DNA of 64,000 nucleotides. Origin: Thermodesulfobacteriota bacterium. GTDB lineage: Bacteria; Desulfobacterota; Binatia; UBA9968; JAJDTQ01. Of the stretch, positions 1 through 49,176 are shown piece after piece. The notes under the pieces are model-generated. The model saw only the letters and a program-made list of their open reading frames with translations. It was not told the origin of the DNA and did not search any database. Positions within the stretch are counted from its first letter, which is position 1. Each line of letters opens with the position of its first letter. Both the position numbers and the translations under genes were made by a program. The stretch spans positions 2,369,680 to 2,433,679 of the forward strand of contig OZ220712.1 of NCBI GenBank assembly GCA_965116735.1. The letters are read 5' to 3'.

Positions 1-504
1 GGCCGCTTCCGCTACGGCTCCATGGCGACCATGAGCGACCGAGGCCGCGTCCGCAAGGAATCGTTCGCGGCCCGCGCCTTCTCGTTCGCCGTCGAGGATC
101 CGGAGCGGGAGATCCACCTGCTGCGCGGGCATTCCTTCGATCAACCCCTGGCGTCGAAGCGGGCCGGGTCTTTGCGACTCGTTGACACCGACGAGGCCCT
201 GGAGTTCGAGGCGACGCTGCCCGACGAGCAACCCACCTTCATGCGCGATACCGTCTCCATGATCCGGGCCGGCCTGGTGGGCGGAATCTCTCCCGGTTTC
301 CGAGTGCCTCCTCGAGACGTGGTTCCCGGCGCTGAAACCTTCGAACCGGAGCCGGGCAACCCGGACGTGGCAATCCGCGTGATCCGGAGGGCCGTGTTGT
401 TCGAGCTCTCGCTTGTGACGCGCCCGGCCTATCCCGATACCGAAGTGGATCTCCGCCAGTGGATGCCGGCGGCGACGCCGGAGAGGAGGCGCTGGTGGCT
501 CTGA
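1..504 (+). CDS. HK97-family phage prohead protease, N-terminus outside window
   Basis: The reading frame is open from nt 1. The C-terminal motif LFELSLVTRPAYPDT matches the conserved E-x-S-L-V-x-x-P-A signature of HK97/S78 prohead proteases. Confidence 0.6.
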   Translation, partial: GRFRYGSMATMSDRGRVRKESFAARAFSFAVEDPEREIHLLRGHSFDQPLASKRAGSLRLVDTDEALEFEATLPDEQPTFMRDTVSMIRAGLVGGISPGFRVPPRDVVPGAETFEPEPGNPDVAIRVIRRAVLFELSLVTRPAYPDTEVDLRQWMPAATPERRRWWL

Positions 505-875
505 GTCCCTGGCCGTCGAGCACGGCCACCGTCGCCTTGCGTGCGGCGACAAAAACCCTCCGAGCCGCCTTGGGCCGGGGCGAGAGCACGTCTCACCCCT
601 TTACGTTTGACGACGTGGACGCGGAAGTGCAGCGCCTGGGTGCGACCGTGGCGGCGCGTGTTGAAGAGTACGCCCCGAACGCGCCACAACCCTCGAAGGA
701 CGAAGCGGTGATCCGCGGCGCGGCCTGGCTCCGGGACACACGAGGGGCGCTTCCGAAAGAGTCCGTCGGCCCTCTGAGCGTGGAGCACGTGACGAATACC
801 GCGGCGTGGTTCCTCCACAGTGGCGCCGCCAGCCTCCTGACGCGCTGGAAGGTTCGTCGGGGAGGGGCTTGTTGA
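459..875 (+). CDS. Hypothetical phage protein, possibly a head-tail connector
   Basis: ORF of 138 aa between the protease and the next structural gene. It overlaps both neighbours, so it may be spurious. Confidence 0.25.
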   Translation: MDAGGDAGEEALVALSPWPSSTATVALRAATKTLRAALGRGESTSHPFTFDDVDAEVQRLGATVAARVEEYAPNAPQPSKDEAVIRGAAWLRDTRGALPKESVGPLSVEHVTNTAAWFLHSGAASLLTRWKVRRGGAC

Positions 876-1933
876 TGCGCTGGCCGTGGTCCAAACGCGA
901 GAAGCGGGAAAGCTCCTTCACGGACGCCTTGGTGACGCAGATCCTCGCGACGGCGTCCGGGGCGTCTCTTGCGCTGCCCACCACCATCGCGGCACTCGAG
1001 ACCGCCGCGAACCTCTACGCCCGGGCCTTCGCCGCGGCGAAGGTCCAGGGTCCTGCCTGGGCGCAAGTGGCGTTGTCTCCGGCGTGTCTCGGGATGATCG
1101 GCCGGGCGCTCATCCGCGAGGGAGAGATCGTGCTCGCCATTGACGCGGCAGACGGGGAGCTGCGCTTGTGGCCGGCCGCTGACCATGACGTGACGGGAGG
1201 GTATGACCCTGCCGGGTGGGTTTACAGGCTGAACTTGGCGGGTCCTTCCTACCTGGCGACGCGCACCGTGGGCGCGGAAGGTGTTGTCCACGTCCGCTAC
1301 GCCGCCGATCCCGCGCGGCCGTGGCGCGGCGTGGGGCCGTTGGACAGCGCCCGCACCACGGGCGCCCTGGCCGCCAGCCTCGAGCAACGATTGAGCGAAG
1401 AAGCCGGAGGCCCGGTGGGGCACCTGCTTCCGGTTCCGGCGGACGGCGGCGACGGTGGAGATGGCGATCCGCTCGCGAAGTTGAAAGCCGACGTCCGGGC
1501 CGCCAGGGGCCGGCCGCTCCTGATCGAGACGACCAGCGCGGGCTGGGGCGAGGGCCGCGCCAACGCCCCGAATCAGGACTGGCAGCCTCGCCGACTCGGG
1601 GCCAACCCACCGGCGACCCTGCCCGTGCTCCGGGACGCCGCCAGCATGGCCGTCCTGGACGCTTGCGGAGTGCCGCGGGCGCTGGCGGAATCAGCGGACG
1701 GAACCGCGGCCCGTGAAGGGTGGAGACGCTTCGTCATGGGCGCTGTGGAGCCCCTGCTCGGTATCGTAGGGGCCGAGGTGTCCCGCAAGCTCGAGACGGC
1801 CGTCTCCTTCGACCTGGGCGGCCTGTGGGCGCACGATCTGCAAGGCCGGGCCAGCGCGTTTCAACGGCTCGTGGCCGGTGGCGTGCCTGTTAACGAGGCC
1901 CTGGCGACGTCCGGTCTGCTCGCGGAGGAATGA
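806..1933 (+). CDS. Phage structural protein, portal-like or capsid-like
   Basis: ORF of 375 aa directly downstream of the prohead protease in the same orientation, with protein-like composition. The exact family cannot be resolved by eye. Confidence 0.4.
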   Translation: MVPPQWRRQPPDALEGSSGRGLLMRWPWSKREKRESSFTDALVTQILATASGASLALPTTIAALETAANLYARAFAAAKVQGPAWAQVALSPACLGMIGRALIREGEIVLAIDAADGELRLWPAADHDVTGGYDPAGWVYRLNLAGPSYLATRTVGAEGVVHVRYAADPARPWRGVGPLDSARTTGALAASLEQRLSEEAGGPVGHLLPVPADGGDGGDGDPLAKLKADVRAARGRPLLIETTSAGWGEGRANAPNQDWQPRRLGANPPATLPVLRDAASMAVLDACGVPRALAESADGTAAREGWRRFVMGAVEPLLGIVGAEVSRKLETAVSFDLGGLWAHDLQGRASAFQRLVAGGVPVNEALATSGLLAEE

Positions 1934-2139
1934 TGAATCCACCACGCGTGTGCCCCTGTGGCCGTCCTACCGTGACGCGGTACGACGATCACTGCGCCCG
2001 ATGTATCCGGCGCGCCAAGCCGGCGACGCGACCGATGGCTGGCTCCGTGCCGGTGGCTGGCGGGGGCGGGGGAGGGCGGCTGGGCAAGAGAGATCGTAAG
2101 TTCTGGGTCGCTCCTGGGGAACTTCAGCCCTTTTTTTGA
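1930..2139 (+). CDS. Small zinc-ribbon-like protein
   Basis: ATG overlaps the upstream stop (ATGA). It carries a CPCG...HCARC cysteine pattern. Confidence 0.3.
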   Translation: MMNPPRVCPCGRPTVTRYDDHCARCIRRAKPATRPMAGSVPVAGGGGGGRLGKRDRKFWVAPGELQPFF

Positions 2140-2423
2140 GGCGTGGTATCCTCGTCCTCGATGTAGCCCTCACTGCGTAAATGTTCGAAATAGGCCTTTT
2201 TGCTCATTGGACAGTTGGCGAGGTTTCGGGCTTGCCGCATGCTAACCTTAATTTGCTTAGGGATATAGTCGTGCCCCTTTGCCTTTGAGGCTCTTCTTAT
2301 TCCATAGGAAAAAAGAACCTTGCCATTGTACTCTATCTCGACAAAGCCGTGCCTAGTGTTGTCTCCGGAAGCCGCGGATAGTTTCTTGGCGATCTTCTCC
2401 GCATGTGTCTGGTTTAACACCAT
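2124..2423 (-). CDS. Hypothetical protein, cargo gene C of the low-GC module
   Basis: 99 aa and clearly lower GC than its surroundings. It is translationally coupled to the upstream gene (2423/2425) and has no recognisable family. Confidence 0.5.
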   Translation of the reverse strand: MVLNQTHAEKIAKKLSAASGDNTRHGFVEIEYNGKVLFSYGIRRASKAKGHDYIPKQIKVSMRQARNLANCPMSKKAYFEHLRSEGYIEDEDTTPQKKG

Positions 2424-2424
2424 T

Positions 2425-2916
2425 CTATTTGCGGGGTCGTAGGTGCTTCCGAAGGATGGTCAATTGCGTCCTGGGAGTGCTGCCAAGCTGCTTGGAAGGC
2501 CTGCGACTAAACACTTCATACATGTCAAGAATGTGTGCAGCGAGGTTTCCGACCGCATCCTCGCTGGTTTCTCCTGGCATGGCAACATTGGCCTTTTCAA
2601 AGCTTGCCGTGAAATCGTCAGGGGCATTTTGTATAACCCTCACCTCGATAGGCTTGATAACATCGTATGGTTCTTCCGGAAAGGCGTTGATAAACGTCAC
2701 CACGCAATAGGGCGCACCGGAATGCTGCGGGGAATGATTGGGAAGCTGACGGACGGCTTCATACCATTCATCAACATTGTGGGATTGTGGACTCCACGGC
2801 AGTCCAGGACCGGTCTGATCGTTACCCAAGAACTGGCTCGCAAGAATCCCTCTGACGATTCCTGGATCCCATCCGTAGCTATCGTCGGTCTTTGAGGCAC
2901 TGGCTTCATCTATCAC
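2425..2916 (-). CDS. Hypothetical protein, cargo gene B of the low-GC module
   Basis: 163 aa, low GC. It overlaps the upstream gene by 4 nt (2913-2916). Confidence 0.5.
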   Translation of the reverse strand: MIDEASASKTDDSYGWDPGIVRGILASQFLGNDQTGPGLPWSPQSHNVDEWYEAVRQLPNHSPQHSGAPYCVVTFINAFPEEPYDVIKPIEVRVIQNAPDDFTASFEKANVAMPGETSEDAVGNLAAHILDMYEVFSRRPSKQLGSTPRTQLTILRKHLRPRK

Positions 2917-3293
2917 TGGAGGGTTCCCTTTTTCTCTTCTTCCAGTCTCTGCCTCTGGAGATTTTCGTATTCGTCGACCTTACCGAGCAGCCATGTAGCG
3001 ATTGATCTTGCGTTTTCGGGTCTCATCACTACACCCACTGAGAGATGCCGTACATACTTGAGTTGACCGGGTTGGGGGTCGATCTGAGCGCCAATCCGAC
3101 CTTCCGGCTCCACCACGTGTGTAATTGAGGTCGGGAGCGCGTGCTGTTCCGAGTAAAGATGCATGGCGATTTCACCCTTATTCGTTACTCCTCCCCATGC
3201 CCCGTCAACCGCAACTAGCCGATAATCTTGGTCCTTCTCGAACTGAAAGACGGCCTTATTCGGGATCCCTTGTGAGGACCGCTTCGCTGCCAT
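2913..3293 (-). CDS. Hypothetical protein, cargo gene A of the low-GC module
   Basis: 126 aa, low GC, first gene of a tightly coupled three-gene minus-strand operon. Confidence 0.5.
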   Translation of the reverse strand: MAAKRSSQGIPNKAVFQFEKDQDYRLVAVDGAWGGVTNKGEIAMHLYSEQHALPTSITHVVEPEGRIGAQIDPQPGQLKYVRHLSVGVVMRPENARSIATWLLGKVDEYENLQRQRLEEEKKGTLQ

Positions 3294-3662
3294 ATTTCAC
3301 CACCTCTTTCCGGTTCTTTGAGGATATGGACGGGCTTGACGGGTAGCGACTCATGTTTACAAGGAGGGAAGTTCCCTGATCAGATCCATTCACCCTAATG
3401 GTCAGGCCCTAGAGCGATAGGGAGGACGATGTTCGAGCAACAGCTCCCTCTCTTCTTGGTCTAGTAAAAGCGAAAGTGCTTGTCAAGAAGTTTCAGTTGG
3501 GTCTCCACACGCTCCCCCGCCCAGCCGCGCGGCGCCGGCAAGGCACAAGTAGACCGGCAAGCCGCTCTCGCTGGCGGCGGTCGGTCACGGCCTACCCACT
3601 GCGCGACATGCATCCGCACAGCCGCGCCACCATGTCCAACCCCCGCCACCAGTTGATCGTTC

Positions 3663-3693
3663 GATCAATCGGTTTCCCGTAAACCGATTGATC
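3663..3693. promoter_or_regulatory. Perfect 13-bp inverted repeat with a 5-nt loop, putative operator or terminator
   Basis: GATCAATCGGTTT-cccgt-AAACCGATTGATC lies about 30 bp upstream of the promoter-like element. Confidence 0.4.
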
Positions 3694-3724
3694 CGCCTAT
3701 CTCCGTCCGGGCGGTACCCCCCAC

Positions 3725-3753
3725 TTGACTCGATTCCCGTTCCAAGGTATAAA
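3725..3753 (+). promoter_or_regulatory. Sigma70-like promoter: TTGACT, 17-nt spacer, TATAAA
   Basis: Near-consensus -35 and -10 hexamers with a 17-nt spacer, about 30 nt upstream of an AGGAGG RBS and the TTG start at 3783. Confidence 0.45.
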
Positions 3754-3782
3754 TCCGTAAGCTTCGTTAGGAGGTATACCCC

Positions 3783-3995
3783 TTGCCAACCAAAGATGGA
3801 GCATACGTCACCGCGCATTTGAACCCGCGCGACATGGATGATTTCAAGCGTGTGAAGGCCTACATGCGGGCGAAGAACGAGGCATCCGGGTGGCCGGCCG
3901 AACGCGCGGATCCTACAAACTCAAACGTCGTGCGCTTCGCCCTGCTGATTGCGCGGGGTACTATCGAGGCTTGGGAGAAGGAAGTGGCACCCTAA
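3783..3995 (+). CDS. Small putative DNA-binding protein (ribbon-helix-helix-like) of the integration module
   Basis: 70 aa with an AGGAGG RBS 8 nt upstream of a TTG start. A predicted strand-helix-helix layout is read by eye. It sits upstream of the integrase. Confidence 0.4.
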   Translation: MPTKDGAYVTAHLNPRDMDDFKRVKAYMRAKNEASGWPAERADPTNSNVVRFALLIARGTIEAWEKEVAP

Positions 3996-4024
3996 GCTTC
4001 GGGCAAGTCTCTGTGATCAGACCA

Positions 4025-4228
4025 ATGAGGAGGTCCCCAATCACCGAGGTCGAGCTCGCGCGCTACCTGAAGGCGTTGCGGCGTGCCGGCTTCGATTCGG
4101 GCCGCGTGGAAATTTCGCCGGACGGCAAGATTTCCGTCATCGCGGGGGAGGGGGAGCCCGAACCCACGGGCGCCAACGACTTCGACAGGTTGATAGGGAG
4201 GGTCAAGAACGATGCGCCGCCGTCTTAG
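4025..4228 (+). CDS. Small hypothetical protein immediately upstream of the integrase, possibly an excisionase-like accessory
   Basis: ATG at 4025 within ORF 3890..4228. Its stop overlaps the integrase start. Confidence 0.35.
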   Translation: MRRSPITEVELARYLKALRRAGFDSGRVEISPDGKISVIAGEGEPEPTGANDFDRLIGRVKNDAPPS

Positions 4229-5285
4229 AAATCCGTTTCCGGGCGTGACGGTCGTCGAGGATCGCCACGGCAAGAGCCGCTACCGCCTGCGCCGGGTCGT
4301 CAAGGGCCGGAGCGTGGACACCTACCTCCCCAATCCGTATGCTTCGCCAGCGTTTCGAGCGGCATACGACGAAGCGATTGAGGGCGCGCGTGTAGCAACA
4401 ACGCGCCGCGCACAGCCCGGCACGCTGGCCTACCTCATCACCTCGTACCTGGATTCCACGGCGTTCAGAAACCTCGCCGCCGATACGCGGCGGTCAAAGC
4501 GTTACCGCTTGGACTGGCTCAGGGAAGCCGTTGGCCAAGGCCGGTACGCCTCGATGGAACCCCGCCACGTCGAAGCACTCATGCAAAAGAAGGGCGGGCC
4601 AGCTGCGGGCAACCGGCTCAAGGCGGACTTGGCGCAACTGTACAGGTACGCGGCGAAGCGGTTCGGCTACACCGGCCCGAACCCTGCGGCACTCGCGGAT
4701 GGACTCAAGGTCAAGCCTGGCGGTTATCACACCTGGACCGAGGAGGAGATCGCAATCTACCGAGCGCACCATCCCACCGGGACCAAGGCGCGCTTGGCGC
4801 TGGAGATCTTCCTCGGCACGGGCGCGGCCAGACAGGACGGAGCTGCACTCACTCGCGGGAACATCCGCGGGGATCGGCTCTACTATCGCCGGCACAAGAC
4901 CGGCCAGGACGTGGACCTGCCCATTATGCCAGAGCTGGCCGCGGAGCTGGCGCACGTTCCTGCGAACCAGATGATGCTCATCGGCCACAGCCAGAACGGC
5001 CGGGCATACTCCGTCGCCGGACTCGGCAACGCCTTCGCCGACTGGTGCCGGGATGCGGGATTGCCACACTGCTCCGCTCATGGATTGCGCAAGGCAGGCG
5101 CGCGGCGACTAGCCGAAGCGGGCGCCACGGAGTTCGAGATCATGGCGTTTCTCGCGCACAAGAACACGCGGGAAGCGGCGAGGTACGCGATGGCGGCGAA
5201 CCGAAGCAGGCTGACCAGCTCGGGCATGGCGAAGCTCAAAAAAGTTGTCCAACCTTTGCGGAGGTTGGACAACTCGGACCGCTAA
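4212..5285 (+). CDS. int: Tyrosine-type site-specific recombinase (phage integrase)
   Basis: C-terminal catalytic region HSAHGLRKAGARRLAEAGATEFEIMAFLAHKN...AARY carries the R..HxxR..Y signature of tyrosine recombinases. It ends 20 nt from the tRNA 3' end. Confidence 0.9.
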   Translation: MRRRLRNPFPGVTVVEDRHGKSRYRLRRVVKGRSVDTYLPNPYASPAFRAAYDEAIEGARVATTRRAQPGTLAYLITSYLDSTAFRNLAADTRRSKRYRLDWLREAVGQGRYASMEPRHVEALMQKKGGPAAGNRLKADLAQLYRYAAKRFGYTGPNPAALADGLKVKPGGYHTWTEEEIAIYRAHHPTGTKARLALEIFLGTGAARQDGAALTRGNIRGDRLYYRRHKTGQDVDLPIMPELAAELAHVPANQMMLIGHSQNGRAYSVAGLGNAFADWCRDAGLPHCSAHGLRKAGARRLAEAGATEFEIMAFLAHKNTREAARYAMAANRSRLTSSGMAKLKKVVQPLRRLDNSDR

Positions 5286-5305
5286 CATCGTGAAATATAT
5301 AGAGA

Positions 5306-5382
5306 AAAAGCAAGAGGTGGTGGTCGCAGCAGGACTCGAACCTGCGACCTCTTGCATGTGAGGCAAGCGCTCTAGCCGACTG
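5306..5382 (-). tRNA. tRNA-Val (anticodon CAC)
   Basis: Minus-strand sequence GGTCGCATAGCTCAGTCGGCTAGAGCGCTTGCCTCACATGCAAGAGGTCGCAGGTTCGAGTCCTGCTGCGACCACCA. Hand folding gives a 7-bp acceptor stem, a D arm, an anticodon stem CTTGC/GCAAG with loop CTCACAT, a T-loop TTCGAGT and an encoded CCA. Confidence 0.85.
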
Positions 5383-5463
5383 AGCTATGCGACCACTGTG
5401 GGACCTTGACGTTTACCACCTCAGGGGGCGGGTTTCAACAACGCCGCGACCCCGGCGGGCAAG

Positions 5464-5730
5464 TCACTCCCGCTCCTTGTGCCGCTGCTTGATGCGCTGG
5501 TTCAGCGACTGCAGGATGCCGGCGGCGACAGCGGCGATGACGTCAACCGCGGCGTCGAGATGTTCTTCGGGAATATCTGCTTTCCTTGCGTCCGCAAGGC
5601 GCCGGTCCACTCAGGGATCGCAGTTGCGCGTCATCGCCACGGCGAGGCCGAGAAAGATCTTCTCCCGCTCGCTGAGGCACTCGACGGCGTGGGCGTCGCG
5701 ATAGAACTGGCGGAAGTCTGCCTTCTTCAT
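5464..5730 (-). CDS. AhpD-like / carboxymuconolactone-decarboxylase-family selenoprotein with in-frame UGA = Sec at 5611..5613
   Basis: CAGGAGG SD sits 6 nt upstream of the ATG at 5730. Translation reads MKKADFRQFYRDAHAVECLSEREKIFLGLAVAMTRNCDP-U-VDRRLADARKADIPEEHLDAAVDVIAAVAAGILQSLNQRIKQRHKERE. The TGA occupies the second redox position of the family CxxC motif, giving CxxU. The frame stays protein-like after the TGA, and a hairpin begins 11 nt downstream. Confidence 0.7.
5584..5599 (-). promoter_or_regulatory. Bacterial SECIS-like hairpin downstream of the UGA
   Basis: On the mRNA: UGA, then 11 nt, then CCUUGC-GGAC-GCAAGG, a 6-bp stem with a G-rich apical loop. The G lies about 21 nt after the UGA, within the usual bSECIS window. 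Confidence 0.5.
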
Positions 5731-5783
5731 GGATGTCCTCCTGACGGCGCGGGCGCATCTTGGCGACCGCACCGGTGGTGCGA

Positions 5784-6191
5784 TCAGCCCTTGGCCATCT
5801 CCAGGATCTCGTCGTAGTGGGCGTCGCTCACCGGGACAAAGGAAAGCCGGCCCAGACGGAACAGGTCGAAGCCCTCCAGCTTGGGGTTGAGCTTCATCTC
5901 GGCCAGCGACACCTCGCGCTTCAACGCCTTGCCCACCTTGATGTCGAACACCAGGAGCCTGGGGTCATCCTTCTCGGGATCCGCATAGGCGCCGGTGGTG
6001 GCGGTGCCGAGGCCGACGCAGACCCGCTCGCCGCCGGTATGGTAGACGATGCAGCGATCGCCCTTCTTCACGGTCTTGAGGTGCTTGAGCGCAAGATTGT
6101 TCTTGATGCCGTCCCAGATCGTCGACTTGTCCCGCTGCAGGTCGGCAAAGGAATAAACGCTGGGTTCGGTCTTGAGCAGCCAGTTGGCCAT
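5784..6191 (-). CDS. EVE domain protein (PUA-like, DUF55)
   Basis: MANWLLKTEPSVYSF...GIKN...KKGDRCIVYHTGGER is typical of the EVE family. AAGGAGGAGG SD precedes the ATG at 6191. Confidence 0.8.
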   Translation of the reverse strand: MANWLLKTEPSVYSFADLQRDKSTIWDGIKNNLALKHLKTVKKGDRCIVYHTGGERVCVGLGTATTGAYADPEKDDPRLLVFDIKVGKALKREVSLAEMKLNPKLEGFDLFRLGRLSFVPVSDAHYDEILEMAKG

Positions 6192-6332
6192 CGTAATCCT
6201 CCTCCTTGTTCGGCGTCGTCTTGAGATACTGCAAACCGGCACATGCGGCAACCGTGGGGAGGAGTCAGACGCCCAGAGACATTTGTCTGAAACTGTCGCT
6301 CGGATCCCCGTCGCCCCGAATCCGCGCTGGTT

Positions 6333-7107: not shown

Positions 7108-7995
7108 ATGGCGCTCGCACGCGAGAAGAAACCCAGAGACCGTCCGCTGCTTGGCGCCCACATGTCTATCGCCGGCGGGGTCCACAACGCGCTGCATGCC
7201 GGCGACAGCGTGGGCTGCGAGGCCATCCAGATCTTCACCAAGTCCTCGCGGCAGTGGGCCGCGAAACCCCTAAGCGAGGAAGACATCCTGACTTTCAGGG
7301 CGACGCAGAGGGCCAGCGGGATCCACACGGTGGTGGCCCACGACTCCTACCTGCTGAATCTGGGCGCCCCCGACCGGGAACTGCGCGAGAAGTCGGTGGA
7401 CGCCTTCGTGGACGAGATGGAACGGTGCGAGGCGTTGGATATCCCCTGCCTCATCGCCCATCCCGGCGCCCACACCGGCGCGGGCGAGCGCGCGGGACTG
7501 CGCACCATCGCTCGTTCCCTGGACGCGATCCACCGCCGTTGCGCGGGCTTCAAGGTGCGGGTCGCGCTGGAGATCACCGCCGGCCAGGGCACCAACCTGG
7601 GCTACCGCTTCGAGCACATCCGTAACATCATCGACAGCGCCAGGGAAAGCGACCGGCTCCGCGTGTGCTTCGACACCCAGCACGCGTTCGCCGCCGGATA
7701 CGACATTCGCACTCCCGAAGGCTACGAGCGGACCTTTGCGGAGTTCGACGAGACCATCGGGGTCAAGCTCCTCGCCGCCTTCCACCTGAACGACTCGAAG
7801 AAAGAGCTCGACTGCCGGGTGGACCGCCACGAGCTCATCGGCAAGGGGCACATCGACGTGGAGCCGTTCCGGCTGCTGATGAACGACAGGCGCTTCTTCG
7901 GACTGCCCATGTGCCTTGAAACCCCCAAGGGCAAGGACCTGAAGGAGGATCGCGAGACTCTTGAGCTGCTACGGTCCTTTCGGGGCGACGCGTGA
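7108..7995 (+). CDS. nfo: Deoxyribonuclease IV (endonuclease IV, AP endonuclease family 2)
   Basis: Strong collinear similarity to Nfo: GAHMSIAGG, IFTKSSRQW, HDSYLLNLG, DAFVDEMERCEAL, AHPGAH. The start could alternatively be GTG 7090. Confidence 0.9.
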   Translation: MALAREKKPRDRPLLGAHMSIAGGVHNALHAGDSVGCEAIQIFTKSSRQWAAKPLSEEDILTFRATQRASGIHTVVAHDSYLLNLGAPDRELREKSVDAFVDEMERCEALDIPCLIAHPGAHTGAGERAGLRTIARSLDAIHRRCAGFKVRVALEITAGQGTNLGYRFEHIRNIIDSARESDRLRVCFDTQHAFAAGYDIRTPEGYERTFAEFDETIGVKLLAAFHLNDSKKELDCRVDRHELIGKGHIDVEPFRLLMNDRRFFGLPMCLETPKGKDLKEDRETLELLRSFRGDA

Positions 7996-13817: not shown

Positions 13818-14596
13818 GTTACGACACGATTCTCTACGAAAAGCTCGGCGGCGTCGCCACCATCACCCTGAACCGGCCCGAGGCGCTCAACGCGTTCACG
13901 GCGGAGATGAACCGGGAGCTGCTGGACGCCCTCAAGGACGGCAGCCGCGACAAGGACGTCCGCTGCTTCGTCCTGACCGGCGCCGGCGACCGCGCGTTCT
14001 GCGCCGGACAGGACCTCAAGGAACGTTCGCCGGACCGGAAGGGATCGCTCGGAGAGTCCTTGAGGTCCCGCTACAACCCCATCATCCTGGCCATCCGCCG
14101 GACCGAGAAGATCGTCCTGTGCGCCGTCAACGGCGTGGCCGCGGGCGCGGGATGCAACCTCACCCTGGCCTGCGACCTGCGCATCGCCTCGGAGAACGCG
14201 CGCTTCATCGAAGCGTTCGTGCGCGTGGGGCTGGGCCCGGACTGCGGCGGCAGCTATTTCATGCCGCGGCTCATCGGCCTCGGCAAGGCCACCGAGCTTT
14301 TCCTGCTGGGAGAGCCCCTGAACGCCCAGGACGCGCTCCGCTACGGCCTGGTGACCAAGGTCGTGCCGGCGGCGGAACTGGCGGCGGAAACCCGTGCCAT
14401 GGCGGAAAGGCTGGCCCGCGGCCCCCGCAGCGCCGGCCTGATCAAGCGGACCCTCAACAGGTCCATGTACGCCGAGCTGGCGGCGCAGCTCGAATACGAA
14501 GCGAGCACCCAGGAGATCGCCGGCCGCACCGCCGACTACGACGAGGGAGTCCGCGCGTTCATGGAGAAACGGGACCCGGTGTTCAAGGGGGAATAG
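13814..14596 (+). CDS. Enoyl-CoA hydratase/isomerase family protein
   Basis: ITLNRPEALNAF...FCAGQDL...GAGCNLTLACD. Start overlaps the upstream stop. Confidence 0.9.
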   Translation: MSYDTILYEKLGGVATITLNRPEALNAFTAEMNRELLDALKDGSRDKDVRCFVLTGAGDRAFCAGQDLKERSPDRKGSLGESLRSRYNPIILAIRRTEKIVLCAVNGVAAGAGCNLTLACDLRIASENARFIEAFVRVGLGPDCGGSYFMPRLIGLGKATELFLLGEPLNAQDALRYGLVTKVVPAAELAAETRAMAERLARGPRSAGLIKRTLNRSMYAELAAQLEYEASTQEIAGRTADYDEGVRAFMEKRDPVFKGE

Positions 14597-14634
14597 GTTC
14601 CTGACGGAACCCGCGGTTCTCCCCAAAATCGGTC

Positions 14635-17638: not shown

Positions 17639-20260
17639 ATGAAAAGCAAAGCGTCCAGACTCCTGGTTCTCCTGTCTCTCGCGGCAGTGCTCGTGGTGGC
17701 GGTGGTGGCGGGAGCGGAAGCGCTGCTTGAGAACCGCAAGGAAGCCGTTCGCCGGAGCATCGAAGGCGCCCTCGGGCGCGCCGTGGCTTTCGATTCCATC
17801 AGCCTGAACTTCCTCGGCAGTCCCGGAAACCTCGGCATCACGGTGACCGACCTGCGGGTGGCCGACGATCCGCGGTTCGCGGCGACCCCGCTGGTCCATA
17901 CCGACCAGCTCACGATCACACTGGGGTGGTTGTCGCTGCTCGCGGGCAAGCCGACGGTGTCCCACATCGTCCTTCACCGCCCCGAAATACAGATCATCCG
18001 TAACGAGTACGGCGACATCAACTTCCTGACGCCGGCGCAGCCGCTCGACGCCCTCTTCCGCTCAGCCCATCGAACCGCCATGGCCGTTCACGCCAGCGGC
18101 GGCAAGCTCTACTTCATCGACCGTTCCGCCGACAAGCCCGAGGAACTCCGCCTGCACGACCTGTCCGTGGCGCTCCAATGGTCGCTGGAACCGAGTGTCT
18201 ACGTCGAGGTGTCCGGCGCCATGGCCACGGGCGGAGAGCTGCCGTTCTCTTTGGCCGGCACCGTTGGAACGTCACGGCCGTTGCCGGAGTGGGCCGGAAA
18301 CGCCGTGGACCTGGAGTTGCGGGCAACGGCCGTGCCTCCGGTTCTGGTGGCGCGGGGCTGGAAGTCGATCGAGAATCACCTCCCCTCCTATTTCCGCCCG
18401 TCCGGACCGATCGCCGTGAACGCACGCGTCTCCGGAACGCTCGAACGTCCCCGGATCTTGGAGATGGACGTAACCGCGGCACTGTTCGGCGCGGTTACGA
18501 ACAACGCCCGGCTGGCCGGCAACCTGGACTTCTCCCGGGCCCTGTCCTGGAACGAGGGCCGCGTCAAGGCCGAGCTGCGGCTCGGACCGGTGAGCATCGA
18601 CCAACTGCGGCAGATTCCATGGGTGGACCGGGTGGTGCCGCCGGGGCTGGCGGTGCATCAACCCATGACCCTGTCGAATCTGGTCGAGGGAAGCTTCGAC
18701 GACCTCAGGGTCGACACGTCGGTCACCGCGGACGCCAACACACTCCAGTACGGCAGGTGGCTCGACAAGGAGCCGGGGGTGGCGGCCCGTCTCGCCATGA
18801 AGACAAGGGTGCGCGACCACCGGGTGGTCATCTACGAGTCCGAGGCGCGGCTCCATAACGGCCGGGTGGTGTTCTCCGGCTCCGTCGACCGTCACCCCGA
18901 GCAGGTGGTGCGGCTACGCCTCAAGACCGACGGCGTAGCACTGGGGGGATGGGAGACGCTGGTGCCGGCAACGGCGGGTTACAAGCTGGAGGGCACCCTC
19001 AGCGGCGGACTCTCGCTGCGGCACAAGGCAGCCCCGCAAGACGAGCCTGCGACGCTGATGGGCAGCCTGCGGCTCGCCGACGTCAACGTCATCGGCCCTC
19101 CGGGAAAGCGCCGGACCATCCAGGGGCTCCAGGCGGACCTGGAGTTCCGCGGCGAAGATGTCGAGATCCGGAGGCTTCAACTGCGGTCGGGACTGTCGGA
19201 TCTCCGAGTCCGCGGACTCCTGGTGAACCTGAGCAGCCCCACGTTGCATTACAGTGTCCAGTCCGACCTGCTCAACGTGGCGGACCTCACCGGTGACGCG
19301 AGATACCGAGCGGATTCCTTCAGCAACGTCGCGAGCGAGGGATCCGCCGACTTCGCCAAGGGCGTCCTGTCCGTCAGGGGCTTCGTCTCCTCCAGCAACG
19401 GGCGGCTCAACGGGATCGCGTACCGAAACCTTGAGGGGCGCGTGAACTGGACCGGCGGCGACCTGAAGGCCGACAGGGTGACGGTCGAGACCCTGGGCGG
19501 CAAGGTACGTGGGCACGGCACGCTGACGAGCCGAAACGGCCAGACCTTCGACCTGGAGTTGAGCCCCACGGCGGAGGGCCTGGAACTCGGCAGTCTGCTG
19601 CCGCTGTTTCCCGCCGCCGCCAAGGACTCCATCAACGGCCGCATCAACCTCCGCGGCCGCTTCCAAAGCACCGGCAAGGACTGGCCGGCCATGGTCCGCA
19701 ACCTGAGTGGACACGGGAAGGTGACGCTGGACAAGGGAGTCCTCCGCAAGTTCAATCCCGTGCGCGGCGTGCTGGCCGCCATGGAGGCCGTGGAAGGAAT
19801 CGACAGGATCGACACCGCCGGACCGGCCTACATCCCGCTGGTGAGCGGCGACCGCGCACCTTTCCGGCTCATCGAGGGGACCTTCACCGTCCACAAGGGC
19901 CGCATCCGGAGCGACGATCTGCTGCTGATCTCCGACGAGTACAGCGTCGTCGGAAGGGGTTGGGCGAACCATGACGGCAAGGTGGACCTGCGGGCAACGC
20001 TGGTGCTGTCATCCGGATTCTCCCACGACCTGAGCGGACGCTACCGCAATGTCCGCTATCTCTTCGATGCCGACGGCATCAGCGTGCCGTTCCGGCTCGC
20101 CGGCAACATCCCAGAGGTCTCCGTCGAGCCCGATGCCGCACAGCTCACCCGCTACATGTACGACAAGCTCGCCGAGGAGAGGGGGCCGAGACCCGACGAC
20201 GCCGACGCGGCCAACCTGTGGGAGCGACTGGGGCGAGGCTTCCGAGAGCTGCTCCGTTGA
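17639..20260 (+). CDS. AsmA-family outer-membrane biogenesis protein
   Basis: N-terminal signal/anchor MKSKASRLLVLLSLAAVLVVAVVAG and a long beta-rich 873-aa body typical of AsmA-like proteins. Confidence 0.75.
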   Translation: MKSKASRLLVLLSLAAVLVVAVVAGAEALLENRKEAVRRSIEGALGRAVAFDSISLNFLGSPGNLGITVTDLRVADDPRFAATPLVHTDQLTITLGWLSLLAGKPTVSHIVLHRPEIQIIRNEYGDINFLTPAQPLDALFRSAHRTAMAVHASGGKLYFIDRSADKPEELRLHDLSVALQWSLEPSVYVEVSGAMATGGELPFSLAGTVGTSRPLPEWAGNAVDLELRATAVPPVLVARGWKSIENHLPSYFRPSGPIAVNARVSGTLERPRILEMDVTAALFGAVTNNARLAGNLDFSRALSWNEGRVKAELRLGPVSIDQLRQIPWVDRVVPPGLAVHQPMTLSNLVEGSFDDLRVDTSVTADANTLQYGRWLDKEPGVAARLAMKTRVRDHRVVIYESEARLHNGRVVFSGSVDRHPEQVVRLRLKTDGVALGGWETLVPATAGYKLEGTLSGGLSLRHKAAPQDEPATLMGSLRLADVNVIGPPGKRRTIQGLQADLEFRGEDVEIRRLQLRSGLSDLRVRGLLVNLSSPTLHYSVQSDLLNVADLTGDARYRADSFSNVASEGSADFAKGVLSVRGFVSSSNGRLNGIAYRNLEGRVNWTGGDLKADRVTVETLGGKVRGHGTLTSRNGQTFDLELSPTAEGLELGSLLPLFPAAAKDSINGRINLRGRFQSTGKDWPAMVRNLSGHGKVTLDKGVLRKFNPVRGVLAAMEAVEGIDRIDTAGPAYIPLVSGDRAPFRLIEGTFTVHKGRIRSDDLLLISDEYSVVGRGWANHDGKVDLRATLVLSSGFSHDLSGRYRNVRYLFDADGISVPFRLAGNIPEVSVEPDAAQLTRYMYDKLAEERGPRPDDADAANLWERLGRGFRELLR

Positions 20261-20309: not shown

Positions 20310-20474
20310 CTAGTGTCGCGTCCCGCAAATACCTGGCATAATTTGCTTGTCTTTTTCGCCGTCGGCTGCGTTGCTCTTCCTCGCGTGGTGCCCGCCACTG
20401 CTCGTCATCGCGCCTTGCCGACAACAAAAAATCCTGCGCAACTTATGCCAGGTATTTGCGGGACGCGACACTAG
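20310..20474. mobile_element. MITE-like nested palindromic element, copy 1 (165 bp, 32-bp perfect terminal inverted repeats)
   Basis: TIR-L CTAGTGTCGCGTCCCGCAAATACCTGGCATAA and TIR-R TTATGCCAGGTATTTGCGGGACGCGACACTAG are exact reverse complements. An inner stem TTTTTCGCCGTCGGC/GCCGACAACAAAAAA is present. The core is about 95% identical to the element at 48084..48248, in inverted orientation. Both ends are bounded by CTAG. Confidence 0.6.
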
Positions 20475-20485
20475 CTCTTCCGCCA

Positions 20486-20772
20486 TGGACGTCAACGAGA
20501 TCTACCTCCGGGTAAGCCGGCGCGACATCGCCTACATCAAGTTCATCGTGGAGTCCTATGAGCTGCTGGGCATCATCCGTACGGTAGACCCGGCCGCGGC
20601 GGTCATCGTACTGCTGGTGCTGGAGGACTCCCTTCCACTCGCTCGTGAGGTGCTGGCCGCCCTGGCGGATGAAGTGGACATCGAGGAGGTTCCGCGTCCC
20701 GCCGGCCTGGGCGACGACTGGCTGCTCGCGGAGTTGACCACCCCCGGACCGCACGCCGGCGACGACGCATGA
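20486..20772 (+). CDS. Small conserved protein (DUF4911-like) upstream of RNase R
   Basis: MDVNEIYLRVSRRDIAYIKFIVESYELLGIIRTVDP... starts right after the MITE-like element. The track ORF start at 20347 lies inside the element and is rejected. Confidence 0.5.
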
Positions 20773-45593: not shown

Positions 45594-46316
45594 ATGAGCT
45601 GGGAGATCGGCCTCTACGCTTTCGCCGTGGTGCTTGCGGCCGCGAGCCTGCAGGGAATTACCGGAGCCGGCATGATGATCCTGTCGGTGCCGCCTCTCGT
45701 GGTGGCGATGCCGGCTACGGTGGTGGTGCCCGGCATCGTCCTTCTCTACCTGCCCTTGGGCACCGCCCAGATCATCCAGCTCCGCCGTGACATCGACCGC
45801 CGGCGCCTGGCCACGCTGCTGCTGAGCTCCGCCCCGATGGTTCCCCTGGGCGCCCTGGTCCTGAGGGAGGTGGACACGGTCACGTTGCAGCGGGGCATCG
45901 GTTTGCTGATGATCGCACTGGCGCTGCTGCTGCAGGTGAAACCGGGGCCTCCGTTCTCGCGGGAGCTGCCTCCCTGCGTCGGCACCGGCCTGATCGCCGG
46001 CTTTCTCGCCGCCAGCACTTCGGTGTCCGGTCCGCCGCTGGTGCTGTTCGGGCTCAAGCAGCGCTGGGAACCGGCCCGCTTCCGCGCCACCCTGATCGCC
46101 TACTTCCTGGTGATCTCCGCCTTCTCCCTGCCCTTCTACTGGGAGATGGAGCTGCTCACTGCCGCGGTCTGGTGGTTCGTGCTCTACGGTCTGCCCGGCA
46201 TCGCCCTTGGGTACTTCACCGGCGCATGGCTCCGGGCACGGGTCTCGGTGGCCGCGTTCCGCTGGCTCGCCACCGGCGTGGTGGTCGCCGGGGGCCTCGC
46301 CGCGGCCCTGCTTTGA
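45594..46316 (+). CDS. Sulfite exporter TauE/SafE-family membrane protein
   Basis: Glycine-rich TM helices (LQGITGAGMMIL) typical of DUF81/TauE. Confidence 0.8.
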   Translation: MSWEIGLYAFAVVLAAASLQGITGAGMMILSVPPLVVAMPATVVVPGIVLLYLPLGTAQIIQLRRDIDRRRLATLLLSSAPMVPLGALVLREVDTVTLQRGIGLLMIALALLLQVKPGPPFSRELPPCVGTGLIAGFLAASTSVSGPPLVLFGLKQRWEPARFRATLIAYFLVISAFSLPFYWEMELLTAAVWWFVLYGLPGIALGYFTGAWLRARVSVAAFRWLATGVVVAGGLAAALL

Positions 46317-46435
46317 AGCCAAAACCGGTATCCGGAAGCCCTGATTCAAGGTTGACAACGCCACGGCGCGTTGATAGAAGCGCCAAATCACCCGAGGTCG
46401 GGTGCCCATCGTCAACCATCCGAAGGGAGAGGAAA

Positions 46436-47968
46436 ATGCGAAATCGTTTACGAACCACTGTCCTGGCGCTGTTCGTCGCGGGACTGGCCCTGTGCCTCGC
46501 CACCACGGCGTTGGCGCAGAAGAAGACGCGTATCAGCATCGGCACCACCGAGACCATGGAGACGCACAACCCGTACGGGGACAGCGTCGCCCTGCTCTAC
46601 GGCATCTACACCGAGCTGAGCGGCCCGCTGTGCAAGTTCGACTGGGAGAACGGCAAGTGGGTGCCGGGGCTGGCCAAGAGCTGGACCGTCGAGGACCCCA
46701 ACAACTGGGTCTTCGAGCTGGACCCGGGCTACACGTTCCAGGACGGCTCGCCGGTGACCGCGGACGACATCGTGCACTCCTTCTGGCGTGTGCTGAACGA
46801 CCCCCAGACCAAGCAGATCGCTTCGGTGGCCCGCCCGGTCAAGGAGGCCACCGCCATCAGCAAGCACAAGGTGCGGGTCACCACCAAGAAGCCCACCGCG
46901 CCGCTCCTGGACTTCCTCTGCGACGCGCTCATCATCACCAGCAAGAAGGTCTACGACAAGCACGGCGCCAGGACCGCGGACAGGAAGTTCCACTACGGCG
47001 GCGGCCCCTACGAGCTGGTGGAATTGGTGCCCGGACAGCGCATGGTCACCCGCAAGCGCCCCGATCACCCGGCCGCCAAGCTGAACCCCAAGGCGCCCGA
47101 CGAGATCGTGTTCCGGGTCATGCGCGAGGCCGAGCAGCGGGTGGCGGCGCTCTTGAACGACGAAGTGCAGATCGCGCAGCTCATTCCGCCGCATCTGTTC
47201 AAGACCGTGGACGGCTCCCCGAACCACAAGATCGTGAAAGTCGACTCCGTCGTGATCATGTTCCTGGCCATGCAGCCCAAGCCGCCCTTCGACAAGAAGG
47301 AAGTGCGCCAGGCCGTGTGTCACGCCATCGACCGGGACAAGATCATCAAGACCCTTCTCCAAGGGCAGGCGACACGGCTCGACGGGCCCCTGGGTCCCGG
47401 CCAGTTGGGGTACAACCCGAACCTGAAGACCCGTTACACCTACGACCCCAAGAAGTCGCGTGAGCTGCTGGCCAAGGCCGGCTACCCCGACGGAGGCGTC
47501 GAGGTGGAGTTGCAGACCCCTGTCGGCCGCTACGTCCTGGACAAGCAGGCGACCGAGGCCATGATCCCGATGCTCAACGCGGCGGGCTTCAAGGCCAAGC
47601 TGCGGACGCCGGAGTGGCCTACCCTGTGGGCCAACGTCCAGAAGGGCAAGGTGCCGTTCTTCTACATGGGCCGTGGCGGCGTCGTCGACCCGAGCTCCGC
47701 GTTCCACCAGTACTTCAGAAAGGGCGGCTCGCCGCGGATCGGCTACTCCCATCCCGACATCGATGCGGCCCTCGACGCGGAACAGCAGGAGTTCGATCCC
47801 GAGAAGCGGAATCAGCACCTCACCACCGCTATGGAGCTCATCACCGACCATGCGCCCGCCTGCTTCATGTGGCGGCAGCAGTTCCTGTGGGGCATGAGCA
47901 ACAAGATCGACTACCAGCCCCTTGCCGATTCCCGCATCTACGGCATGGACATCAGCGTGAACCCGTAA
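46436..47968 (+). CDS. ABC transporter substrate-binding protein, family 5 (DppA/OppA/NikA-like)
   Basis: GAAGGGAGAGG SD precedes ATG 46436. Signal peptide MRNRLRTTVLALFVAGLALCLATTALA is followed by an SBP_bac_5 body. Confidence 0.85.
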   Translation: MRNRLRTTVLALFVAGLALCLATTALAQKKTRISIGTTETMETHNPYGDSVALLYGIYTELSGPLCKFDWENGKWVPGLAKSWTVEDPNNWVFELDPGYTFQDGSPVTADDIVHSFWRVLNDPQTKQIASVARPVKEATAISKHKVRVTTKKPTAPLLDFLCDALIITSKKVYDKHGARTADRKFHYGGGPYELVELVPGQRMVTRKRPDHPAAKLNPKAPDEIVFRVMREAEQRVAALLNDEVQIAQLIPPHLFKTVDGSPNHKIVKVDSVVIMFLAMQPKPPFDKKEVRQAVCHAIDRDKIIKTLLQGQATRLDGPLGPGQLGYNPNLKTRYTYDPKKSRELLAKAGYPDGGVEVELQTPVGRYVLDKQATEAMIPMLNAAGFKAKLRTPEWPTLWANVQKGKVPFFYMGRGGVVDPSSAFHQYFRKGGSPRIGYSHPDIDAALDAEQQEFDPEKRNQHLTTAMELITDHAPACFMWRQQFLWGMSNKIDYQPLADSRIYGMDISVNP

Positions 47969-48083
47969 CGCCACGGGCTCACACGAGCGAAGATGAGGGG
48001 CATGCTTCCGAGATCGGAGGCATGCCCCTCTTGATTTGGGAACGGAGGGGCGGTTGCCGCAGGACCGGCGCCGACCCTCGCCA

Positions 48084-48248
48084 CTAGTGTGGTGTCTGGT
48101 TAATTCGCATAATAATATGCGGAGGATTTTTCGTCGTCGGCAAGGCGCGACGACGAGCAGTGGCGGGCACCACGCGAGGAAGAGCAACGCCGCCGACGGC
48201 GAAAAAGACCCGCAGATTATTGTGCGAATTAACCAGACACCACACTAG
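48084..48248. mobile_element. MITE-like nested palindromic element, copy 2 (165 bp)
   Basis: TIR-L CTAGTGTGGTGTCTGGTTAATTCGCATAATAAT and TIR-R ATTATTGTGCGAATTAACCAGACACCACACTAG, one mismatch. The core is about 95% identical to the copy at 20310..20474 but inverted. The TIR sequences differ between copies yet each is self-complementary. Confidence 0.6.
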
Positions 48249-48273: not shown

Positions 48274-49176
48274 ATGAAACCCCGATTCCGCGGCATCTTC
48301 ATTCCGACCCTCACCACCTTCCACGACGACGGCGAGGTGGACTTCGACGTGCTCGGCGAGATGCTGGAGTTCAACATCAGCGCCGGCGTCCACGGTCTGT
48401 TCGTGCTCGGCTCCACCGGCATGGGGCCGGCGATGACGACCGAACAACGCCTCGCCACGGCGGAATTCGTCATGGAGCGCGTGCGGGGCCGGCTGCCGGT
48501 CATCATGCACGCCGGCGCCGCCGACGTGCAGACCACCTGCCGGCTTGCCCAACACTCGCAGAACCTGGGCGTGGATGCCGTCGCCGTGGTGCCGCCGTAC
48601 TACTACACCGACCACACGCCGTGGGAGATTACCGCGCACTACAAGGCGGTGGCGGCCGCGGTCAACGGCACTCCGTTGTTCCTTTACGACAACGTCAAGT
48701 ACTCGGGATGGGCCTTTACGCCGGCCACGGCCAAGGCCCTGCAGCAGGAAGTGCCGTCGCTGTGCGGCATGAAGGCGAGCTACTACGCCCAGGGACCGCT
48801 GATGGGCTATCTGGAGGCCATGCCCGAGGACTTCGCGGTCATGTCGGGCAACAGCATCGATCTCCTGCCGGCCACGCCCCACGGGCTGAGCGGCGCCATC
48901 CCGCCCCTGACCAGCGCCATCCCCGAGATCTGCGTGGCGCTGTGGGAGGCCCTGGAGCGAAGAGACTACGAGCAGGCGATTCCGCTGCAGAAGAAGGCCG
49001 ACGACTTCGGCCGGACCATCGGCCGGCTGGGGCAGCGCTTCGGCCGCAGCGCCCATCGTGAAGCCATGCGGGCGCGGGGCTTCAGGATCCAGCGCTACCC
49101 GCGCTGGCCTTCCGAGGAGCTTACCGAGGAAGCGATGCAGACCGTCGCCGACGCCTTGAAGGCCACCGGCGTCTGA
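48274..49176 (+). CDS. Dihydrodipicolinate synthase-family lyase (DapA/NAL family)
   Basis: IPTLTTFHDDGEVD...GLFVLGSTGMG and the TIM-barrel DapA family. SD GGGAGG. Confidence 0.85.
   Translation: MKPRFRGIFIPTLTTFHDDGEVDFDVLGEMLEFNISAGVHGLFVLGSTGMGPAMTTEQRLATAEFVMERVRGRLPVIMHAGAADVQTTCRLAQHSQNLGVDAVAVVPPYYYTDHTPWEITAHYKAVAAAVNGTPLFLYDNVKYSGWAFTPATAKALQQEVPSLCGMKASYYAQGPLMGYLEAMPEDFAVMSGNSIDLLPATPHGLSGAIPPLTSAIPEICVALWEALERRDYEQAIPLQKKADDFGRTIGRLGQRFGRSAHREAMRARGFRIQRYPRWPSEELTEEAMQTVADALKATGV

Follow-up and report, generated by a model that had tools for sequence, protein, structure and literature searches.

A TA-flanked foldback element of Candidatus Binatia with a conserved centre and divergent, mirror-image arms

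Correia elements (CREE or NEMIS) of Neisseria are non-coding repeats of approximately 105-157 bp, present in many copies and composed of inverted repeats around a "conserved core"; they duplicate a TA (occasionally CA) target, occur as internal-deletion length variants and with variant terminal inverted repeats (TIRs), have no known transposase, and give rise to a transcript hairpin that is a substrate of RNase III (PMC2649163). The bcr1 repeats of the Bacillus cereus group, approximately 155 bp long, are mobile and non-coding and carry compensatory changes that keep their double-stranded fold (PMC3184786), while REPINs, mobilised by RAYTs, form within-genome populations and whole-element hairpins in single-stranded DNA (ssDNA) or RNA, with common compensatory changes (PMC3116915). 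Elements of the IS630 family generate a 2-bp TA target duplication (PMC2170065), and IS5-type MITEs (miniature transposable elements with inverted repeats) such as MITEPsy1 insert at CTAG or YTAA with a 4-nt duplication (PMC3189936). Here, we analyse a palindromic feature at positions 20310-20474 of a 64,000-nt stretch (hereafter, the window) of the genome of a Thermodesulfobacteriota bacterium of the Binatia (contig OZ220712.1, assembly GCA_965116735.1), together with its second copy at positions 48084-48248. Taken as a whole, the feature is likely one member of a MITE-like foldback family that is non-autonomous, was active recently and is specific to Candidatus Binatia. The element has spread as many arm subfamilies, is non-coding, and is absent from the sites of both window copies in close relatives. 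We regard it as a new family of foldback MITEs comparable to the Correia, bcr1 and REPIN repeats, of which the Correia elements are nearest in kind; the form recognised is probably a single-stranded hairpin.

As a first-pass annotation of the window had it, both copies are exactly 165 bp long, bounded by CTAG at both ends and intergenic, and their coordinates and gene neighbours agree with that description. No third copy was found in the window by core-word and profile searches, and a 24-nt core word did not occur in any of 100 shuffles, so that the repetition is not due to chance. In opposite orientation, the two cores match at 48 of 50 apical positions and at 91 of 101 positions when the inner stem is included, consistent with the likeness of the cores and the inner stem already annotated. 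The outer arms of copy 1 are perfect complements over 32 nt (47 nt at 89% when the flanks are included), and those of copy 2 are complementary over 39 nt at 95%. The arms of the two copies, described at first as unrelated in sequence, turned out to be diverged homologues: in an ungapped comparison 17 of 29 positions are shared, including the terminal CTAGTGT and an inner ATAA, and all 12 differences are mirrored, and thus compensated, on the opposite arm. The variable arm segments have no further match within 3 mismatches anywhere in the window. Folded as single-stranded RNA, the two copies have predicted energies of -105.1 and -107.1 kcal/mol, compared with approximately -48 +/- 3.6 for shuffles (z of about -16).

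Family copies were gathered with the exact invariant core 20-mer CGCGTGGTGCCCGCCACTGC, which occurs twice in the window and in at least 97 stretches of a species-representative genome collection, nearly all from metagenome-assembled genomes (MAGs) labelled as Candidatus Binatia or bearing older delta-proteobacterial names for the same MAGs; at least 15 of these stretches lie on the chromosome OZ244869. Other complete Binatia chromosomes with the element include OZ241976, OY761465 and OZ220710. JGI metagenomes contributed 95 further stretches, bringing the total to at least 190, whereas no viral contig matched the 20-mer and a metagenome scan with the arm subfamily of copy 1 gave no match. A profile search of the genome loci recovered 89 full and 87 truncated copies (loci are referred to below by L numbers). 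An alignment set of 71 distinct full copies was used for the family-wide values given here. Where the exact core word is missing, the copy departs from it at 1-2 nt or has nested inserts. In this collection, assembled through the core as the first-pass annotation had proposed, the terminal changes came out as compensatory rather than random.

Read 5' to 3' on the reference strand, the strand tolerating G.U/G.T, the element has TA on each side and begins with a semi-conserved terminal 10 bp (GTGTSSTGTC; mean pairwise identity 0.855), followed by an arm of approximately 20 bp (identity 0.36), which is free to differ between subfamilies and yet is the exact complement of the opposite arm. Inward of the arm stand a conserved asymmetric internal loop, which includes tandem G.A, and a 15-bp inner stem with conserved U.G wobbles (identity of 0.83 for loop and stem), enclosing an almost invariant apical domain of 50 nt (identity of 0.98, and of 0.97 outside the collection word). 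The arms fall into at least 22 clusters visibly related by descent, with inner-stem variants going with arm types, and the clusters are therefore lineages of one element and not unrelated captured sequences. As first noted from the two window copies, the family thus breaks the usual MITE rule of shared TIRs, since here the TIRs are not the conserved part.

The covariation of the outer stems, likewise proposed in the first-pass annotation, was very strong across the family. For the hairpin under test, the paired fraction of alignment cells is 93.7%, compared with 79.5% for shuffles and 33-47% for partners shifted along the sequence, and 606 cells carry double changes against 171 in shuffles. 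Double changes are present at 22 of 24 pairs of the outer stem, in which 98.5% of cells are paired; none of 500 shuffles reached the observed covariation values. RNAalifold independently recovered the same hairpin, with 32 of its 57 pairs compensated, and the apical helices never vary and are hence uninformative in this respect.

Comparison of closely similar copies indicates how the arms are kept symmetric. Among 15 pairs of copies differing at exactly one arm pair, six are fully compensated, and all six changes are transversions, which cannot pass via a wobble intermediate. For example, between L056 and L057 of one MAG a C-G pair is replaced by G-C and one further base differs. The orthologous copies L035 and L039, with flanks 88% identical, are distinguished by a G-C to T-A change in place. 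Two copies unrelated to each other, L054 and L172, have a 3' side that complements the 5' side exactly as far as the inner stem, the normally asymmetric internal loop included; snap-back or template-switch synthesis on a hairpin has this outcome. Symmetric change extends to the flanking TA itself in L060 and L073 (CTG...CAG). Such one-step compensation between near-identical copies argues for hairpin-templated DNA conversion rather than slow compensatory evolution of an RNA type, and from these observations we infer conversion of this kind as the main source of the symmetry, a reading that we hold to be moderately probable. The decayed stems of the old copies L094 and L068 show that correction of the arms is not perpetual. 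Exchange between dispersed copies also occurs: L084 combines an A'-type left arm with a B-type right arm where L035 is B/B, which is evidence for gene conversion or recombination. The two loci (L084 1480-1727 and L035 1229-1427) are the same, with flanks 95-98% identical.

Orthologous sites with and without the element document its mobility and its target. The clean pair of empty and filled sites consists of L095, reading CCCTAGGCG, and the orthologous L082, reading CCCTA[GTGTCC..GGACACTA]GGCG, or CCCTA-[GTGTCC...GGACAC]-TA-GGCG with the element set off between its two TA, and demonstrates duplication of TA. The site of copy 1 is empty in L098, L099, L101 and L102, which have the same AsmA-DUF4911-RNase R arrangement and spacers of 61-124 nt as against 224 nt in the window; L098, the closest relative at this site, reads CCCCTGGCCC where the window reads CCCC-TA-[159 bp]-TA-GCTC. 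At the site of copy 2, the closest relative L103 (97% identical in DHDPS) has a spacer of 137 nt without the element, compared with 305 nt in the window. An unoccupied counterpart of the L030 (OZ241976) element site was located at 14596..14634 of the window, its flanks aligning at approximately 90% on both sides, and two separate loci of one genome, L061 and L072, carry copies identical at 165 of 165 positions.

The left flank of the 71 copies always reads ..TAG, and the right flank reads TAG in 51, TAA in 17 and TAC in 3 of them; the 159-bp element therefore starts with G and ends with C, and the repeated unit is TA. A 4-bp duplication (IS5-like) is ruled out by the combination of a left CTAG with a right CTAA or CTAC in about 20 of the 71 copies, and a 6-bp duplication (IS481-like, NCTAGN) by the same flank statistics, so that between the two duplications suggested at the outset, TA or CTAG, it was TA that was borne out. 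The element inserts at TA, preferably C-TA-G/A, adding 161 bp, with C-TA..TA-G flanks in 37-46 copies. CTAG itself is depleted approximately 9-fold in the window (22 found versus 201 expected, with 4 of the 22 being the ends of the two elements), and CTAA, TTAG and TTAA are likewise depleted. At two orthologous TA sites (L020/L094 and L062/L095) different arm subfamilies occupy the same position in different species, which indicates independent hits, or replacement, at rare CTAG sites; the scarcity of CTAG accounts for repeated independent hits at one site by different subfamilies. That the element is a TA-flanked, recently mobile, non-autonomous foldback element is very likely.

By size (<500 bp) and other traits, the element is MITE-like, as first annotated, and belongs among generic MITEs: it is 159 bp long and non-coding, with complementary arms of 29-36 bp, many dispersed copies, presence and absence at orthologous sites and a target-site duplication. 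Generic MITEs also have conserved TIRs that match a resident insertion sequence (IS), whereas here the arm interior stands at 0.36 against 0.98 in the centre and no IS with these ends was found in approximately 1.5 Mb of loci. Tenzen and Ohtsubo are said to have reported in 1991 that IS630 prefers TA within CTAG. An ordinary double-stranded cut-and-paste MITE of the IS630/Tc1-mariner kind, with arms acting as TIRs bound by a transposase dimer, covariation due to gene conversion only and no role for a single-stranded hairpin, is possible but on the unlikely side. The TA duplication, insertion in TA and the C-TA-G preference match the behaviour of IS630/ISY100 (PMC2170065); MITEs typically have such a size, TIRs, multicopy occurrence and intergenic sites (PMC10969869); the terminal 10 bp show conservation; and the L084 chimera shows that gene conversion between copies happens. 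On the other hand, active subfamilies differ from one another almost at random over the approximately 20 bp to which a transposase would bind, in contrast to the invariant centre, the mismatches in the stem are strand-asymmetric, and the orientation of insertion tracks an asymmetric target although the TIRs are identical. Neither a parent IS nor a DDE transposase element with the same ends was detected in the window or in the fetched loci.

Mismatches were counted as events, each type once per arm cluster and column. On the strand corresponding to copy 2 (+) and copy 1 (-), G.U outnumbers A.C by 39:13 in the arms and by 45:3 in the inner stem, where one position is a U.G wobble in 53 of the 71 copies; a symmetric duplex process would give equal numbers of G.U and A.C. 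The target is asymmetric as well: in copies whose two TA are intact, the element is preceded by C in 52, G in 4 and T in none and followed by G in 40, A in 13 and C in 3, with C-TA..TA-A found 11-12 times and its mirror image T-TA..TA-G 0-1 times, though both arms are identical. Strand-biased mismatches and an orientation-aware target together suggest that one particular single strand is probably the folded form that matters; its recognition as such is put forward more tentatively. With respect to neighbouring genes the elements lie at random (24 co-directional, 17 antisense, 14 divergent and 7 convergent), and the relation of their orientation to AT skew, with the elements masked, is marginal (p = 0.07 by t-test and 0.03 by sign test). 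The strand and target asymmetries belong to the element itself.

IS200/IS605-derived palindromic elements have a subterminal hairpin at each end, no TIR and a replication-coupled orientation. A single-strand element of the HUH/Y1 type, resembling these or a RAYT-mobilised REPIN, from which the folded strand would be cut out and inserted 3' of (C)TA, the right TA then being part of the element and not a duplication, would accommodate the one-strand wobble bias and a left flank (C 52-59, T 0-2) stricter than the right one (G 40-49, A 12-13). It would also fit the whole-element hairpin with compensatory changes, as in REPINs (PMC3116915), and GTAG-headed REP-like palindromes are present in the same genomes. 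This alternative is nevertheless unlikely. The element has neither a REP-type GTAG head nor a subterminal hairpin at each end, its arms pairing with each other and not with themselves; both flanks behave symmetrically as TA and even change symmetrically, as in L060 and L073; its orientation is unbiased with respect to GC skew; the surroundings of the copies yielded no RAYT or TnpA gene, and the window contains no Y1 transposase. REPINs, moreover, have invariant ends (REP 16-mers), a variable middle and no TA duplication, the reverse of the invariant middle and varying arms described here.

The first-pass annotation had offered a structured RNA or a cruciform under structural selection as what the covarying stems would reflect. 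The covariation of the outer stems is upheld; the reading as a structured RNA gene lacks support. Under such an explanation, which we regard as very unlikely, the copies would be structured non-coding RNA genes or cis-regulatory RNA hairpins (e.g., RNase III substrates), an RNA function would keep the stems, and mobility would be incidental or ancient. The covariation is indeed of textbook kind, accompanied by conserved U.G wobbles and tandem G.A in the stem, a near-invariant 50-nt apical domain and a G.U bias on one strand, and both Correia and bcr1 repeats are transcribed and processed (PMC2649163, PMC3184786). However, the insertion of both window copies, and of others, is recent and lineage-specific, the copies show no preferred direction with respect to neighbouring genes, compensation occurs in one step between near-identical copies, and old copies such as L094 and L068 decay. 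At gathering thresholds, Rfam identified only tRNA in the whole window and no family on the element, where the best sub-threshold score at E <= 10 was approximately 14.5 bits against a gathering score of about 65. The element contains no sigma-70-like promoter and no general terminator, with the sole exception of a weak terminator-like mini-hairpin in B-type arms, and no integration host factor (IHF) site WATCAANNNNTTR was found anywhere in the window. The element is not a stand-alone RNA gene. The mini-hairpin of B-type arms, followed by a T run, is terminator-like on both strands (48104-48123 on the plus strand and 48208-48229 on the minus strand in copy 2) and is not present in other arm types.

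A 43-codon frame running from an ATG at 48117 to the terminal TAG at 48246-48248 is open through copy 2 and most other copies, and could be taken to encode a small protein. Its start codon, however, lies inside the perfect 32-bp stem and is ATG, TTG, GTG, CTG or ACG among copies, the C-terminal half is encoded by the hypervariable arm, and conservation of the core extends over all three codon positions. When the 43-aa frame was searched with HMMER against 1.84 billion representatives, only short proteins, or unrelated proteins matched by their C-terminal ends, were returned; these matches, none with a transposase domain, are 3' read-throughs of unrelated genes (e.g., a DctM fragment) and form no family. 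The small-protein reading is thus effectively refuted, and the peptides assigned to the element are spurious, as was suspected from the beginning.

Among described systems, the Correia elements share with this family their size class, a non-coding and multicopy nature, long inverted repeats round a conserved core, a TA target, internal-deletion length variants, variant TIRs and the lack of a known transposase. They differ in having no sequence homology to it, with ends of the type TATAG[CT]GGATTAA(C/A)... as opposed to (C)TA-GTGTSSTGTC, and in showing few TIR variants, whereas at least 20 arm types with strict left-right symmetry occur here; the long Correia form has an IHF-binding site, while neither an IHF site nor an end-generated promoter was found in this element, and the host belongs to another phylum. 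Homology to the Neisseria repeats, suspected from TAGTGG and CAAGGCG motifs, is not supported by the published end patterns. The bcr1 repeats, of a Firmicute host, are unrelated in sequence and flanked by 5-bp direct repeats instead of TA. IS5-type MITEs share the CTAG target but not the length of the duplication. Integron attC sites have the form R''/L''..L'/R' with a GTTRRRY core site and a variable centre, and stand in cassette arrays next to intI. Unlike these sites, judged from the alignment with no search aimed at GTTRRRY, the element has an invariant and not a variable centre, and its copies are solitary and dispersed.

Pfam analysis of all 47 window genes revealed no transposase of any kind. 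A broader search for a mobilising enzyme combined a search for TIR pairs over 24-5000 bp in all loci with an all-against-all search for repeated proteins, and neither produced a partner element. In L133, a candidate 1165-bp segment (5087-6252) with 15-bp inverted ends starting TA-GTGTCTCAG holds a 162-aa open reading frame (ORF) without a recognisable Pfam family. Unrelated to the foldback element, positions 1-5400 of the window hold the remnant of a phage-derived or integrative element, comprising a Caudovirus prohead protease fragment (1-501, plus strand), a tyrosine integrase (4197-5282, plus strand) and, directly adjoining the latter, a tRNA gene (5321-5394, minus strand); this integrase is the sole tyrosine recombinase seen in the window and lies far from both copies.

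Several points weigh against the explanation favoured here, a foldback element recognised by its fold. No mobilising enzyme was found in the window or in the limited sample of approximately 1.5 Mb of fetched loci. TA duplication in CTAG is the product of double-stranded cut-and-paste IS630/Tc1-mariner transposases, a mechanism without need of a hairpin (PMC2170065), and the likeness of the arms could also be maintained by ordinary gene conversion of the inverted repeats. Part of the wobble asymmetry goes back to common ancestry, so that its events are not fully independent, and the target asymmetry rests on about 13 copies and is weak in the metagenome set (one CTA..TAA). An IS200/IS605-like, replication-coupled mechanism would predict the orientation bias relative to GC skew that is lacking, and collection by an exact 20-mer inflates the conservation of the core.

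The foldback element that we favour would be moved in trans by a putative enzyme needing the arms as a stem that joins the two ends, not as sequence, and reading sequence only at the termini and, probably, in the apical domain. The arms would be kept complementary mainly because one arm is copied from the other in a single hairpin-templated step (by snap-back or template switching); loss of copies no longer folding would add to this complementarity, with the propagation of foldable copies as a filter on top. The relevant folded form would probably be one single strand (DNA, less likely RNA) and not a symmetric double-stranded TIR pair. In a bolder design, not yet described and distinctly unlikely, the arms would hold no sequence information and serve only to fold one strand so as to bring the ends together, the 50-nt apical domain (ssDNA or RNA) would be the recognition module, the enzyme would insert beside CTA in an orientation-aware manner, and one arm would possibly be regenerated from the other in each copying round.

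The element proper of copy 1 occupies 20313..20471 on the minus strand, which is its reference strand (159 bp, GTGT...ACAC; nhmmer E = 1e-50), and belongs to arm subfamily 'E' (GTGTCGCGTCCCGCAAATACCTGGCATAA). It is flanked by the two copies of the duplicated target, read as C-TA-G, at 20311..20312 and 20472..20473. Its plus-strand left outer arm (20313..20341), made up of the terminal 10 bp GTGTCGCGTC and a variable segment, is the perfect reverse complement of the right one (20443..20471). The inner stem pairs 20352..20366 (TTTTTCGCCGTCGGC on the plus strand) with 20417..20431 (GCCGACAACAAAAAA on the plus strand) and has three non-Watson-Crick positions, which are G.U on the minus strand only; it encloses the 50-nt apical domain (20367..20416, minus strand; approximately 98% identity family-wide), within which lies a small hairpin, GCAGUGG-CGGGCA-CCACGC. 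Copy 1 stands between an AsmA/YhdP-like gene (17639-20260, plus strand) and a DUF4911 gene (20485-20772, plus strand), the latter followed by RNase R.

In copy 2, the element proper (48087..48245; 159 bp, nhmmer E = 1e-50) has the plus strand as reference strand and arm subfamily B' (GTGTGGTGTCTGGTTAATTCGCATAATAAT), with the duplicated TA at 48085..48086 and 48246..48247. The left arm (48087..48122) pairs with the right arm (48210..48245), apart from one A/G mismatch and a single plus-strand U.G wobble. The 5' side of the inner stem (48127..48141, TTTTTCGTCGTCGGC) and its 3' side (48192..48206, GCCGACGGCGAAAAA) enclose the apical domain (48142..48191, plus strand), 50 nt in length and near-invariant in the family. 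The neighbouring genes, both on the plus strand, encode a family-5 solute-binding protein (SBP_bac_5; 46172-47968) and a DHDPS-family protein (48274-49176); an exact look-up of the latter protein gave no record. The former gene has a strong intrinsic-terminator hairpin at 47995-48030 (plus strand), with 16 pairs followed by TTGATTT; copy 2 is inserted just 3' of it, and the hairpin is kept in the relative L103.

In some elements, small palindromic REP-like repeats are nested in the apical domain. Three positions recur, namely behind GGCAAGGCG (+24 or +48 nt), behind GAGGAAGA (with a CCCCGGGTCAAGGCCCGGGG... insert) and behind GCAGCCG. Other small-repeat types include a GTAG-headed one, GTAGGGGCGACCGGCGGTCGCCCC, and a GGGCGGGTTTGAAACCCGCCC type, and the same small repeats are also found free in the flanks; the loci concerned are L003/L005/L021/L031/L036/L084, L025/L092/L147/L148/L178, L035/L071/L176, L021/L043/L156 and L072. 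Arms-only mini-derivatives of 18-55 bp, keeping only the element termini (e.g., CTAGTGTCCTGACACTAG), were observed in L005 (~3595-3612), L004 (~7840-7875), L016 (6888-6940) and L062 (~2530-2555), and could be scars of excision or products of internal deletion. Many copies in short-read MAGs are located no more than approximately 100 bp from a contig end (L001-L097), making the element a frequent assembly breakpoint.

The element inverts the usual MITE pattern, in that its centre is frozen while its arms drift freely and yet stay mirror images. In practical terms, the repeat breaks short-read Binatia assemblies, as its copies at contig ends attest, seeds spurious ORFs and false C-terminal extensions in gene calls, and provides a strain-level insertion marker for an uncultured lineage. 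The wobble bias towards one strand, the orientation-aware choice of target and the two copies whose 3' half has been rewritten together make the family a natural data set for two questions: whether a bacterial foldback element is recognised by shape rather than by TIR sequence, and how hairpin-templated conversion keeps palindromes perfect. Should the apical domain turn out to be what an enzyme grips, a search for that enzyme would be worthwhile.

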